From a virus, in IMG/VR virus record IMGVR_UViG_3300013125_000664: 29,068 nt of DNA; one strand, given 5' to 3'. Within the stretch, counting starts at the first letter, position 1. Every line of letters begins with the position of its first letter. The notes under the pieces are model-generated. The model was not told the origin of the DNA. It did not search any database and saw nothing but the letters and a program-made list of their open reading frames with translations. Shown piece after piece: positions 7,076-10,576 of the stretch. The position numbers and the translations under genes were made by a program.

Positions 7076-7104
7076 TTGAAAAAAGGCTGTAACGAGCATA
7101 TAAT
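7076..7104 (+). promoter_or_regulatory. sigma70 promoter TTGAAA-N17-TATAAT driving tRNA-Leu and the downstream 3-gene cassette
   Basis: -35 7076-7081, -10 7099-7104; predicted TSS about 7111, tRNA starts at 7114. Confidence 0.55.
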
Positions 7105-7113
7105 TAAGATATC

Positions 7114-7196
7114 GTCTGAGTGGTGGAATGGCAGACACGCTAGCTTGAGGAGTTAGTGGCCGAAAGGCCGTGCGGGTTCAAGTCCCGCCTCGGACA
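7114..7196 (+). tRNA. tRNA-Leu(GAG), type II (long variable arm), no encoded CCA
   Basis: Hand-folded cloverleaf: acceptor GTCTGAG/CTCGGAC (one G-U), anticodon stem CTAGC/GTTAG, loop TTGAGGA (U33, anticodon GAG, G37), variable arm GGCCGAAAGGCC, T-arm GCGGG TTCAAGT CCCGC, discriminator A. Confidence 0.7.
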
Positions 7197-7222
7197 TATA
7201 AAATGAAATTGGAAAAACTAAA

Positions 7223-7939
7223 TTGATGAATGGCACAGATGAATTACTTTTAGATGATTGTGATGAACAGAAGCGCAGCAGCGTTCATATAGTGATATCA
7301 GCCTATCGCTCATTGCTGACACCTATCTCCTATGTTAGTATGCCAATAACCACTGGCAAACTTTATTATGAGGTTTTAGAAAAGATCGGATCAGACATCA
7401 GTAAAAAACAAATTTATGATCTTGTCATTAAACCTAATGGGGAGCAAGGAGTTAAGTTTGCAAAAGAGATTAAAACAACTTATCCCATTGTTGCTCCAGC
7501 CATATTCGAAGCTAAACAAATGAGATGGACCGAACGACAGTACATGTATCTTTGGTACCGTATTTTAGAAGAAAAAGCCAAAGAAATATGGATGAGTCCA
7601 GATTGGCAATATAGTAATGGTTGTGCTGAAGAATTTACGCGATCTATGAAATTGCAATGGGATTTTGTGAGATTAGAGAGCAGATCTTTGTCACCGATTA
7701 CAGCTTTTGATGCAGAAAGTAATAAATTAACTATTTTTGACGGGGCTAAATTATTGTATAAGGCTATTAAAGATCTTCATCAGCGTAATCATATATGCAT
7801 AAAACTTGTAGAATGTTTGCATGAACTTGTGAATTATGCTGGGGCATTTTATACTTATGGAATAAATCAGGGATGGGAATGCCCTGATGAAGTGGATTAT
7901 GGTCAGATGGTTATATGGGCAGAAGAAACCAAGATCTAA
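7223..7939 (+). CDS. hypothetical protein (first gene of the tRNA-bounded cassette); likely start at ATG 7226
   Basis: ORF with coherent codon usage, 27 nt after tRNA-Leu; no family recognised. Confidence 0.5.
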   Translation: MMNGTDELLLDDCDEQKRSSVHIVISAYRSLLTPISYVSMPITTGKLYYEVLEKIGSDISKKQIYDLVIKPNGEQGVKFAKEIKTTYPIVAPAIFEAKQMRWTERQYMYLWYRILEEKAKEIWMSPDWQYSNGCAEEFTRSMKLQWDFVRLESRSLSPITAFDAESNKLTIFDGAKLLYKAIKDLHQRNHICIKLVECLHELVNYAGAFYTYGINQGWECPDEVDYGQMVIWAEETKI

Positions 7940-7951
7940 GCCGGAAAAACT

Positions 7952-8821
7952 ATGAACTATATAATCGAATTCAATAAAAATTGTGAACTAGGTAGGGATT
8001 TTATTTCCATATCTGATATGGGCAAAAAAAGTATAGAGGAACTAGTCGCTTTTGGTTATATTGATTTGGAAGAGGCTGTAGAAGATATATCTTATACCAC
8101 AGTCAAATCTAAACAAGAAATATATCATTATTTAATTAATGCTATACCTACTACTAGCAGAGTTATTAAGGATCTTCCAAATTATGGTAAAAAAGTATTC
8201 TTACCTAAGGATTTAGTTGATCTCTTTCAGGAGACATTTATGGATGTATTAGATCAAATAGAGACAGAAGATCAGGGAGTCTCCATCATTGAGGATATAT
8301 CACCGACTATTGAGATTTTATCAGTAGCTAAGAATAATCAGACATCTAATAATATGTATGATTTACTTAATCAAGGATATTTCTCTACAACAATGCTTAT
8401 GGAAGAACTTTCTACACTTTATGGATATTCTCAAAAAAGTTTAGAACACCATATCTATAAAACTCTGCCAGAAGATATGAAAATTATTATAAAATTAGGT
8501 AAAACAAATAAGAGAATTTTGGTATCACCAGAGGGCCGTTTATTTTTGATTGATAAATTGATGAAAACGAGACCCAAAAAAATAAATATTCAGCATCCAG
8601 CGGGATCAGCAGAGATAATTGGTGGTGAACAAGAAATCTCTCCTGATATTATTGATGAGAAAGAATACAATACTGGTTTATTAAAAGATATGTCGGTGGA
8701 ACAAATACTTCAAATATTACCTGAGATATTAGGAATGCCGCAAGCTGAGACTATTAAGGTAATAATGAAATATGGTGATAATAAAACTATTTATGCTAGA
8801 ATAATAGAAAGGAGAGATTGA
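7952..8821 (+). CDS. hypothetical protein
   Basis: ORF in the same frame, 12 nt after the upstream stop; stop overlaps the next start (TGAaATG). No family recognised. Confidence 0.5.
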   Translation: MNYIIEFNKNCELGRDFISISDMGKKSIEELVAFGYIDLEEAVEDISYTTVKSKQEIYHYLINAIPTTSRVIKDLPNYGKKVFLPKDLVDLFQETFMDVLDQIETEDQGVSIIEDISPTIEILSVAKNNQTSNNMYDLLNQGYFSTTMLMEELSTLYGYSQKSLEHHIYKTLPEDMKIIIKLGKTNKRILVSPEGRLFLIDKLMKTRPKKINIQHPAGSAEIIGGEQEISPDIIDEKEYNTGLLKDMSVEQILQILPEILGMPQAETIKVIMKYGDNKTIYARIIERRD

Positions 8822-8822
8822 A

Positions 8823-10466
8823 ATGTCAGTAAGAAAAGTTGTTGAGTTCCCATCCAAGGCAGGTAAACAATTGCTACGTTTCGAACGTGGCAGCAATTAT
8901 GATTTTGCTGAGGCCATTGCTGAATTTATTGATAATTCTTTGGACTGGGGAGGTAAGAATATTGATATTAGACTTGGTACTCACAAAGGTAGTGCTTATA
9001 TCATTGTTTCAGACGATGGTGTGGGGATGACTGAGGAAAAGCTAGTTGAGGCAGCTTCTTTAGGATCTAGCGCTGATAATGATCTTACTCGTAATACAGA
9101 TCCTAATGACCAGATTGGGGTCTATGGCGTTGGTATGAAAGAAGCTGCTTACGGATTAGCAGAAGTTATCACTATTGTATCAAAAAATGAGGCAGCGCCG
9201 ATATGCGAGCTTGTTATTAATAAGCAAAAGATACGTGAAACTGATATATTTTGTGGAGAAATTGAGAGTGGGGCAAAATCAAGCTCTTTATTATTTAGAG
9301 AATATGTTAAGGCTAATACGGGCACTGTGATTTATATGTCTGGTTGCTATGAGCGATATCATAATACCAAGTATAATCGCGATCATTTGTCATCTGAACT
9401 GAGTAGAATGTATAGGAAGTTCTTAGATGATGGTTATAACATAACCATTAACGGACAAAAACTCAAATCATTTGATCCTCTATATTGGCAAGCAAAAGAT
9501 ACTACTCAATATGGTCCTTTTATTATCCCGATATTTAATCGTAAAACTGTCCACTCATCGAGGCTTAGTGAATCTATCCCTAAGAATGAAAAAGTTGGTG
9601 AGATTATTGTTCGTCTATCCTTACTAGGAGAAGACACATTAAAGAAAGTTTCATCAAAAGAGACTAGCGCCAATAAAGGTATTCATTTTCTTCGAGGTAA
9701 AAGAGAAATTTGTAGTAGCATCTCCGACGATTTTCTGGCCGGATGTGACAAATATTCTGTTCGTGGCGAAATTATTTCCACTCCCTCTTTGGATGAATAT
9801 CTGAGAGTTTCTGGTAATAAGAACAAATTCAATATTCATACTTGTGTCAAGGATCAAATGGCCAGAGCTTTTAGAGAATGGGCAAAGATCATTGAAGAGG
9901 AGATAGAAAGACGCTCAGCAGGAGCGAGGGATGAGAAAATTCAAAATCTATTGAATAAGCTCGTTGAAAATATAAATAAATCTATCTCAAAGCTCAATCT
10001 CCCCGGCACAGCAGGCCCTGGGCGAAAAGAAGCAAATGGTCCCATGGAAGGTAAGCCTAAAAGGGGTGGTTCAGGCGGTAATAATGGCAACGATAATAAC
10101 GACGATAATGACAACGGTGACAAGGCCAATAAAAGCGATGGAGGTAACAAGAAATGCGATGCTACGGGCCGAGGTAAGAAATGTTCTCACATTAATATAA
10201 CTCAAAAGAGTTTAGGAGAACAAGCACCTCATATGATGCATTCTTCTTGTCCAAATGGTGAATTAGAAATAATTATCAATCAAGACAATCCTGTTTTTAA
10301 ACTGGTAGCATCTGAAAGTAATCCTGTACAAGATCGCACGCTTAGTCTTTGGATAGCTCATGCCTTTACTATCATTAAAAGTGAATTTAGTGAAGAAGAG
10401 GTCAACGATTATTCAGCGATTGATCTATGCATGAGACAATTACTTTTGGCAGATAAGGCTGCCTGA
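8823..10466 (+). CDS. GHKL-superfamily ATPase, MORC-like (HATPase_c_3-like) N-terminal domain plus a long C-terminal region with a Gly/Asn/Asp low-complexity tract
   Basis: Bergerat-fold motifs: N-box EFIDNSLDWGG, G1 box IVSDDGVGMT, G2 box QIGVYGVGMKEAAYGLA. RBS AAAGGAGAG. Low-complexity GGSGGNNGNDNNDDNDNGD near residue 420. Confidence 0.65.
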   Translation: MSVRKVVEFPSKAGKQLLRFERGSNYDFAEAIAEFIDNSLDWGGKNIDIRLGTHKGSAYIIVSDDGVGMTEEKLVEAASLGSSADNDLTRNTDPNDQIGVYGVGMKEAAYGLAEVITIVSKNEAAPICELVINKQKIRETDIFCGEIESGAKSSSLLFREYVKANTGTVIYMSGCYERYHNTKYNRDHLSSELSRMYRKFLDDGYNITINGQKLKSFDPLYWQAKDTTQYGPFIIPIFNRKTVHSSRLSESIPKNEKVGEIIVRLSLLGEDTLKKVSSKETSANKGIHFLRGKREICSSISDDFLAGCDKYSVRGEIISTPSLDEYLRVSGNKNKFNIHTCVKDQMARAFREWAKIIEEEIERRSAGARDEKIQNLLNKLVENINKSISKLNLPGTAGPGRKEANGPMEGKPKRGGSGGNNGNDNNDDNDNGDKANKSDGGNKKCDATGRGKKCSHINITQKSLGEQAPHMMHSSCPNGELEIIINQDNPVFKLVASESNPVQDRTLSLWIAHAFTIIKSEFSEEEVNDYSAIDLCMRQLLLADKAA

Positions 10467-10504
10467 TCGTCTTAAAATCTCTGCATAGCATAATAGTCGT
10501 GGTT

Positions 10505-10576
10505 GGTGGCGAGGGCGATTGGTTGAGCCTGGGCATTCTAAATGCCCCGTAGGGAGTTCAATTCTCCCCGCCACTT
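10505..10576 (+). tRNA. suppressor tRNA with anticodon CUA (reads UAG amber); amino-acid identity unknown
   Basis: Hand-folded: acceptor GGTGGCG/CGCCACT (G1-U72), D-stem GGC/GCC with GG in the loop, anticodon stem GGGCA/TGCCC, loop TTCTAAA (U33, anticodon CTA at 10538-10540, A37), 4-nt variable loop, T-arm GGGAG TTCAATT CTCCC, discriminator T. Starts 38 nt after the GHKL stop; no promoter of its own was found. Confidence 0.65.

Follow-up and report, generated by a model that had tools for sequence, protein, structure and literature searches.

The window, by which we mean the complete stretch of 29,068 nucleotides from IMG/VR virus record IMGVR_UViG_3300013125_000664 that was analysed, is phage-like: nearly all of its genes lie on the plus strand, and ARAGORN placed five tRNA genes scattered along it. 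The region considered here begins with a promoter, followed by tRNA-Leu(GAG), two protein genes termed P1 and P2, a gene for a GHKL ATPase and an amber suppressor tRNA, tRNA(CUA); the next gene encodes a protein resembling the peptidyl-tRNA hydrolase PTH2 (Table 1). An earlier note, made from the letters of the DNA, had listed the promoter at 7076, tRNA-Leu(GAG), open reading frames (ORFs) of 238, 289 and 547 amino acids and tRNA(CUA), and all were recovered where it had placed them. With moderate confidence, we interpret the region as a mosaic of independently inherited pieces that includes a P2-GHKL adaptor-clamp pair and a suppressor-gated PTH2-like gene. The most interesting result is that the PTH2-like gene opens with a leader whose stop codon matches the anticodon of a nearby suppressor tRNA.

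From 7076 to about 10600 the DNA forms a real early transcription unit that runs from one promoter to the next. Sites that agree with the promoter consensus at 11 or more of 12 positions occur ten times in the window, all on the plus strand, which is more than expected by chance (1.08 ± 1.0 in shuffled sequence). No further site of this quality was found between 7076 and 10611, and the stretch is therefore read as one transcription unit, in line with the single promoter that had been proposed for it; no terminator was found for the unit. A promoter with 12 of 12 positions lies at the equivalent place ahead of the P1 homolog of the related locus L004 (loci are labelled L and a number), and the promoter at 10611 is kept ahead of the PTH2-like gene in L001 and L004.

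Closely related strains differ in the possession of part of this unit. Shared blocks of L002 and L076 (the latter a longer version of the former) on one side and of L004, L075 and L006 on the other are 91–98.6% identical at the nucleotide level, and L076 and L006 derive from the same sample. Between P1 and a D12 methylase gene, a clean swap sets 2.8 kb with P2, the GHKL gene and tRNA(CUA) against 91 unrelated bp. The variable segment starts 14 nt past the stop codon of P1 and ends at the 3' end of tRNA(CUA), while P1 itself is kept in the strains on both sides of the swap (72% and 70% identical to P1 of the window). At least four additional gene-sized insertions or deletions separate these strains, including a TnpB insertion, a PPAT-like gene and the p250 gene. 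The region is mosaic in structure and the cassette is polymorphic among strains.

At the left end, tRNA-Leu is absent from L001, in which the gene for the major vault protein (MVP) homolog runs directly into P1, and the syntenic region of L004 and L008 holds no tRNA whatever. tRNA-Leu(GAG) is a lineage-specific local addition that stands outside any conserved cassette. Based on the boundaries of the swap and the absence of tRNA-Leu, the unit of inheritance is therefore P2-GHKL-tRNA(CUA). Of the mobile, tRNA-bounded cassette envisaged in the earlier note, the movable segment is retained but the bracket of tRNAs is not, as the left boundary falls between P1 and P2. The suppressor tRNA, which had been taken for the right-hand bracket, is better explained by the gene that follows it, PTH2-like with a TAG in its leader.

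The tRNA(CUA) of the window has acceptor, anticodon and T arms, but scores below the Rfam gathering threshold for tRNA, with a best clan match of 26.8 bits (E 0.002). A tRNA(CUA) also stands directly 3' of the GHKL gene in L001, L002 and L076. In the PTH2-like gene downstream, no start codon lies between the in-frame TAG and the conserved domain. The encoded protein matches PF01981 over profile positions 4–104 of 115 with 21.8 bits (cut-off 23), and four of eight relatives match this family at E ≤ 0.01 (best 7.4e-5); a profile search of the PDB yielded a weak match to 2zv3, a PTH2 structure (E 0.16). The homologs in L001 (L001:4083-4504) and L004 (L004:11845-12247) are 76–81% identical to the protein of the window. 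The TAG is conserved in them, flanked on both sides by synonymous changes, and the domain is under strong purifying selection.

Searching IMG/VR and metagenomes with the PTH2-like protein yielded 62 loci (L022–L083). The analysis covered 56 loci (53 from IMG/VR in addition to the window, L001 and L004), with 10 kb on either side per genome and 960 kb of DNA in total. A leader, in which an ATG stands one to nine codons ahead of an in-frame stop (one to eight codons lie between them, most often one) and no start codon precedes the domain, was present in 40 of the 56 loci, representing about 35 distinct sequences. Its commonest form is exactly ATG-NNN-TAG (25 loci). The base 3' of the leader stop is a purine in every case, and the leader ATG is always preceded by a purine-rich stretch. 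Comparable leaders elsewhere in the 960 kb amount to about four per stop type. Suppressor tRNAs were present in 44 of the 56 loci; among the 20 loci that have just one tRNA gene, the suppressor is that one in 17. Among the TAG-leader loci, 31 of 39 have tRNA(CUA) and none has tRNA(UCA), while both loci with a TGA leader (L022 and L044) have tRNA(UCA). The leader stop thus matches the anticodon of the suppressor. The pattern is repeated in six of nine PTH2-like loci from metagenomes.

These results indicate that the PTH2-like gene is probably a client of the suppressor tRNA, with readthrough of the leader stop as the predicted step. Beyond this, we lean, with confidence only a little better than even, towards a widespread and previously undescribed gate, in which the PTH2-like hydrolase would be made only when an anticodon-matched suppressor tRNA of the phage is active. 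In the literature searched, we found no paper that combines Pth2, suppressor tRNA and phage, or that describes this leader. Release factor 2 (prfB) is autoregulated via an early in-frame UGA. By analogy, where a translation-factor-like gene has an in-frame stop close to its start, synthesis of its product would be tied to the balance of termination and readthrough.

Several observations weigh against the proposed interpretation of the region. Strains of the L004/L075 type retain the TAG, and no suppressor tRNA was found in the portion of about 22 kb read from their contig; likewise, eight TAG-leader loci have no suppressor tRNA within 10 kb on either side. The sequence of tRNA(CUA) in the window differs strongly from that at the equivalent position in L001 and L002, for example in the acceptor stems. 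The P2-GHKL family comprises three lineages only, all of them related phages, and their linkage could for this reason partly reflect shared ancestry instead of functional constraint. Insertion and deletion of the cassette are indistinguishable, because the 91 bp in L004 hold no remnant of it. The structure model of the GHKL protein is poor past the ATPase domain (predicted local distance difference test score, pLDDT, 52), and beyond residue 200 it does not allow the middle and C-terminal domains to be assigned. An S5-fold transducer domain, which in MORC and paraMORC proteins follows the ATPase domain and supplies a conserved basic residue, is therefore only putative here, as is the C-terminal domain.

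The eight loci just mentioned, together with the limited coverage of each genome, would also fit the reading that the TAG of the PTH2-like gene is no specific gate, but belongs to a general recoding of TAG in late genes, or that the leader is a mini-ORF and the hydrolase is made otherwise or never. Stop-codon recoding with suppressor tRNAs is known from phages and can be partial along the genome (Borges et al., bioRxiv 10.1101/2021.08.26.457843). Several points speak against this reading. No sign of a general recoding of TAG was seen in the regions covered: in the window, the PTH2-like gene alone needs TAG to be read through and many genes end in TAG, and in the window as well as across the 56 loci the gain in ORFs when TAG is read as sense is no greater than for TGA or TAA. 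The stop always follows one to nine codons after an ATG with a purine-rich stretch ahead, the domain behind it is under strong selection and has no start codon of its own, and the type of stop covaries with the suppressor anticodon. We therefore consider the absence of a specific gate unlikely. The proposed gate would share with the recoding described as a translational timer of phages (bioRxiv 10.1101/2021.08.26.457843) that a suppressor tRNA is needed for a gene with an in-frame stop. It differs in that one gene family is concerned, with one stop at a fixed place just after the start, in genome regions of otherwise standard code; the recoding paper does not mention any hydrolase.

Table 1. 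Features of the promoter-to-promoter unit and of the gene that follows it, in coordinates of the window
Feature	Position	Strand	Remarks
Promoter, sigma-70-type, TTGAAA-17-TATAAT	7076..7104	+	Near-consensus, 11/12 positions; head of transcription unit
tRNA-Leu(GAG)	7114..7196	+	ARAGORN; Rfam tRNA 51.7 bits
P1	7223..7939	+	238 aa; NDT/DUF4406-like superfamily
P2	7952..8821	+	289 aa; orphan partner of GHKL ATPase
GHKL ATPase, MORC/paraMORC-like	8823..10466	+	547 aa; 1 nt gap after P2
tRNA(CUA), amber suppressor	10505..10576	+	ARAGORN; 3' end of unit
Promoter, TTGACA-17-TATAAT	10611..10639	+	Perfect consensus, 12/12; belongs to next gene, marks unit end
PTH2-like gene	10661..11014	+	Begins ATG AAA GAT AAC AAA TTG TAG; in-frame TAG at 10679-10681 is codon 7

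Some further observations concern the suppressor tRNAs and the PTH2-like family. Two of the five ARAGORN calls in the window are below the Rfam gathering score, namely the suppressor and a tRNA-Met(CAT) at 14892-14963. A phage tmRNA adjoins the PTH2-like gene in L024 and L025. Between the PTH2-like gene and tRNA(CUA) genes, a family of genes of about 150 aa was observed (plus strand, L043:11966 and L047:9575) that starts with 'MT*[DS]VKEAAE.Y.W.HQQ.FAVA', in which a TAG interrupts the frame after two codons; this may be a further gene gated by a suppressor. In eight loci (L048, L049, L056, L057, L059, L063, L070 and L026) the PTH2-like domain forms the C-terminal part of a protein of 230–275 aa whose N-terminal domain is helical. 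The gene then begins with an ordinary ATG and lacks the leader stop, and seven of these eight loci still carry tRNA(CUA) about 2 kb upstream.

In the GHKL protein, the ATPase domain is followed by a middle region rich in beta structure, then by a long helix, a disordered linker and, at the C-terminus, a conserved domain. It matches Pfam HATPase_c_3 with 65.6 bits (cut-off 25, E 6e-18) and contains all four motifs of the GHKL or Bergerat-fold ATPases (ExxxNxxD, DxGxG, GxxGxG and the T-G-T region). The N box (E34/N38/D41), the G1 box (D64xG66xG68), the G2 box (G99xxG102xG104) and T166-G167-T168 are invariant in four homologs. The N, G1 and G2 boxes had been recognised in the earlier note, as had the linker rich in Gly, Asn and Asp, which spans residues ~405–450 and is modelled as disordered. 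The top structural matches are MORC2 and MORC3, and neither a Toprim nor a MutL C-terminal domain was detected.

Close relatives of the GHKL protein are rare, with just two among 5.8 billion protein clusters and none in a scan of IMG/VR with the GHKL alignment. Identity to cellular ATPases is 24–29%, mainly within the ATPase domain. The nearest named families, MzaB and the restriction enzyme BbrUII/HgiDII, match the ATPase domain only and far under their cut-offs. Operons of more distant relatives combine a GHKL protein with a C5 methylase and a GIY-YIG-like protein, or with a DEAD helicase and a PLD nuclease; a true Mza locus was recovered as well. The connection to conflict systems that had been expected for the GHKL protein is thus borne out by these defence operons, which fit the paraMORC picture of Iyer et al. 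(2008; PMC2292703). The small protein encoded 5' of a 24% identical GHKL relative (L012) was considered as P2-like and rejected by hhalign; it is weakly GIY-YIG-like.

P2 is found exclusively with this ATPase. An exhaustive HMMER scan of 1.84 billion representative proteins yielded three members (window, L001 and L002), all directly 5' of the GHKL gene with a gap of 0–1 nt, and the GHKL gene is translationally coupled to P2. Repeat copies of about 75 aa number two in the window, one in L001 and three in L002, while the C-terminal tail (LPxLLGMPQAE...) is invariant across the three orthologs. P2 has no match in Pfam, PADLOC or NCBIfam, nor was anything found in the PDB, either by sequence or by a profile of six repeat units; its sole PHROG match is weak (phrog_6282, function unknown, E 6e-4). 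Of the two upstream proteins that had been described as belonging to no recognisable family, this holds for P2 but not entirely for P1. A helix-turn-helix-like nature of the repeat, suggested by its sequence pattern, is not claimed here.

We regard the P2-GHKL pair as a new, phage-borne variation on the paraMORC theme, with a predicted role. It agrees with the prokaryotic MORC and paraMORC proteins (Iyer, Abhiman and Aravind 2008; PMC2292703) in the Bergerat-fold ATPase with all ATP-binding motifs and in a family-specific C-terminal extension. MORC proteins proper, as opposed to paraMORC, have a sequence motif of their own that is common to the eukaryotic and prokaryotic members (PMC2292703). 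In contrast to the prokaryotic proteins, the GHKL protein comes from a phage, where its gene lies in an early accessory region, and its sole constant partner is the orphan repeat protein P2. The operon partners of the prokaryotic families, helicase, endonuclease or methylase, are not found: in the window as in L001, the GHKL gene is constantly accompanied by P1, P2 and a tRNA, and the D12 methylase after the tRNA in L002 and L076 also occurs in strains without the GHKL gene. Among named families, MzaB of the Mza system (PADLOC PDLC02204, NCBIfam NF041932) gives the highest score for the ATPase domain (1e-14). However, the match to NF041932 spans residues 22–221 only and reaches 55.9 bits, against an equivalog cut-off of 850, and the Mza partners are absent from the window, whereas the true Mza locus among the distant relatives (P0013; L020) has them. 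T4 rIIA/rIIB (PMC7824862) likewise combine a phage GHKL ATPase, a variable C-terminal part and a second protein with a link to phage-host conflict, but here the genes stand in the opposite order and encode smaller proteins. Any relationship is by analogy only, and kinship was rejected, since no rII PHROG matched; the best PHROGs are of unknown function.

GHKL ATPases act as ATP-dependent dimers. An effector-less paraMORC-like ATPase could mix or compete with host Mza or GHKL-helicase-PLD systems and disable them, with P2 aiding the binding. Such an anti-defence role would suit a cassette with no nuclease, helicase or methylase of its own whose nearest cellular relatives are ATPases of defence operons. 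It would also suit a neighbourhood rich in counter-defence genes. The accessory and counter-defence genes of the window encode the C-terminus of a ligase with a Macro domain, a cREC receiver with an RNase T exonuclease, the major vault protein homolog, an HNH endonuclease, a metallophosphatase, an ADP-ribosylglycohydrolase, a DNA methylase, a TROVE/Ro60-like protein, an SPFH protein, an R2K ATP-grasp protein, an RNA ligase and an Apyc1-like metallo-beta-lactamase; the last named, the ADP-ribosylglycohydrolase, the Macro domain, DNA methylases and the RNA ligase stand out in this respect. Mixed dimers are nevertheless doubtful at an identity of only 24–29%, most of it in the ATPase domain, and we consider this form of anti-defence improbable.

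P1 belongs to another type of protein. Its true start is likely the ATG at 7226. It matches PHROG 355 (nucleoside 2-deoxyribosyltransferase, NDT) at 2.4e-5, a family without a curated cut-off, and DUF4406 (Pfam) with 15.9 bits, below the cut-off of 22. Weak DUF4406 matches recur in P1 of the window and three of four scanned relatives (E 0.003–0.04 in the relatives). The structure model (pLDDT 85) has 1t1j, NDTs, MilB, Rcl and LOG as top fold matches and shows the flavodoxin-like Rossmann fold of the NDT superfamily, with a conserved Glu after an S/D-x-G motif. Across the P1 family, the motif S-x-G-x-x-x-E does not vary and the N-terminal loop P-I-T-T-G is conserved; we take these to be the catalytic Glu and the phosphate/ribose loop of the superfamily. 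No match was obtained in a PDB profile search with the P1 family. Since the PHROG match, the weak Pfam matches and the fold agree, P1 is probably an NDT/DUF4406-type nucleotide or nucleoside enzyme, with N-glycosidase or transferase as predicted activity. It resembles the superfamily of NDT, DNPH1/Rcl, MilB and LOG (Pfam clan CL0498, which includes DUF4406) in these matches and motifs, whereas its scores are all under the curated cut-offs and it adds a helical C-terminal extension of about 90 aa.

At least four other settings harbour homologs of P1 without P2 and GHKL: beside a D12 methylase (in related phages), beside primase, RecJ and ribonucleotide reductase, beside a PurA-like gene and within a bacterial defence island. 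P1 is conserved backbone of this phage group and acts on its own, independently of P2 and GHKL. The co-occurrence proposed for the three genes thus holds for P2 and GHKL, found together in all three lineages, but not for P1, which is also found alone. A match to a nucleotide-metabolism family and an occurrence without the partners are what the earlier note had named as speaking against its cassette. None of the 53 further phage loci contains P1, P2 or the GHKL gene.

In one bacterial island (L009:10001-12051, GCA_036781205.1), a 473-aa protein is encoded right behind a distant P1-like protein (26% identity), the stop of the P1-like gene overlapping the start of the next; HsdR, McrBC and an IetA-like AAA ATPase lie in the same island. 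The 473-aa protein has no match in Pfam or PADLOC and was rejected as a GHKL protein, as it shows no similarity to it. The two genes may form an uncharacterised two-gene defence pair.

A single mobile, tRNA-delimited conflict system of all three genes, with an NDT/TIR-like P1 as effector, P2 as sensor and GHKL as motor, could account for the common promoter, the tight spacing and the order P1-P2-GHKL kept in the window, L001 and L002/L076. Furthermore, paraMORC4 ATPases are fused to or stand beside stand-alone TIR domains (Iyer et al. 2008; PMC2292703), the TIR domain is Rossmann-like, as is P1, and a distant relative of P1 sits in the bacterial defence island. Against this, strains with 91–98.6% identity keep P1 without P2-GHKL, with the breakpoint 14 nt past the P1 stop, and relatives of P1 lie among replication and nucleotide genes with no GHKL gene. 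The neighbour of the bacterial P1-like gene is unlike the GHKL protein, and L001 is without tRNA-Leu. We regard a three-gene system as quite unlikely.

Very unlikely is an ordinary role of P2-GHKL in handling phage DNA (replication, recombination, topology or compaction), for although topoisomerases and MutL contain GHKL ATPase modules and jumbo phages encode GHKL-containing topoisomerases of their own (PMC7824862), the pair is dispensable, being missing from nearly identical co-occurring strains, is limited to three lineages among 5.8 billion protein clusters and none of the 53 other phage loci, and has no Toprim or MutL C-terminal domain.

The genome that contains the window is that of a large uncultured phage, and the unit sits in a highly variable accessory region. 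No close relative of the window was found among 50,697 deposited phage records; INPHARED in distant mode yielded tRNA matches only, and in near mode nothing. The junction between the p215 gene and P1 (window 4199-7222; L076:2391-3185; L075:7737-7835) is a second hot spot of gene turnover. It holds the vault gene and tRNA-Leu in the window, the vault gene only in L001, about 100 bp in L075, and in L076 a PPAT-like nucleotidyltransferase gene (GSFDPxTxGH motif) with a 125-aa ORF. At 2630-3539 of the window and L004:7053-8410, a cREC receiver gene is followed by an RNase T-type exonuclease gene. In L004 and L075 an IS605-type TnpB gene is inserted in the cREC gene, of which 59 aa still align, and in L076 the cREC gene is intact.

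The vault homolog of the window (4334-6889, MVP shoulder 6e-29) directly precedes P1 here and in L001. The window additionally encodes a TROVE/Ro60-like protein (19093-20739), an ADP-ribosylglycohydrolase (15895-16899), a Macro domain (10-987) and the NDT/TIR-like P1. In the eukaryotic vault, TEP1 is reported to be a TROVE protein with a TIR-like NADase, and the MVP shoulder to bind ADP-ribose (2026 preprint, 10.64898/2026.05.01.722283). Just 5' of the TROVE gene, beside tRNA-Glu and two strong promoters, ARAGORN called an 88-nt 'tRNA-Met(CAT)' (18559-18646; Rfam tRNA 42.8 bits) whose extra arm is unusually long. In bacteria, the Y RNAs bound by Ro60 mimic tRNAs (PMC4201824), and this RNA could be a Y-RNA-like partner of the TROVE protein. 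The ORF at 10-987, cut by the start of the window, leads from the C-terminus of an NAD-dependent DNA ligase (HhH, BRCT) into a weak Macro match (E 0.001), and its ligase homolog in L004 (L004:2055-4676) has 873 aa, longer than the usual LigA. The metallo-beta-lactamase-fold protein at 26968-27744 is above the Pfam cut-off for the anti-Pycsar protein Apyc1 (82.7 against 50 bits).

Taken together, our preferred interpretation of the region as a mosaic assigns the following roles. P2 would be a target-recognition or adaptor subunit, whose variable repeats contact the target and whose conserved C-terminal tail docks on the ATPase, and the GHKL protein would be an ATP-driven dimerising clamp of the MORC/paraMORC type. 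The tight coupling, the variation in repeat number and the conservation of the tail suggest these roles, together with the way in which MORC-type ATPases are known to behave. As no nuclease, helicase or methylase travels along, the pair most likely binds or clamps nucleic acid instead of cutting it. A role in phage-host or phage-phage conflict, as exclusion or counter-defence, is likely, because the module is dispensable and rare and both its distant relatives and its neighbours are related to defence.

For the second part of this interpretation, tRNA(CUA), transcribed at the end of the unit, would decode codon 7 of the PTH2-like gene, its in-frame TAG, and the encoded protein would therefore be made only while the suppressor is active. 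In the window, the suppressor would be delivered as the last gene of the P2-GHKL cassette. Such a gate would couple a change in the reading of stop codons, imposed by the phage, to peptidyl-tRNA or ribosome-rescue activity, or would feed back on the suppressor.

ATPases of the MORC/paraMORC type, known from restriction-like defence in bacteria and from gene silencing in eukaryotes, are also borne by phages, and a strain-variable two-gene module without a nuclease may serve as a minimal system for what such an ATPase does alone. The leader of the PTH2-like gene touches on the question why many phages with a standard genetic code carry suppressor tRNAs: an anticodon-matched stop that heads one gene family would provide a concrete client gene for the suppressor tRNA.

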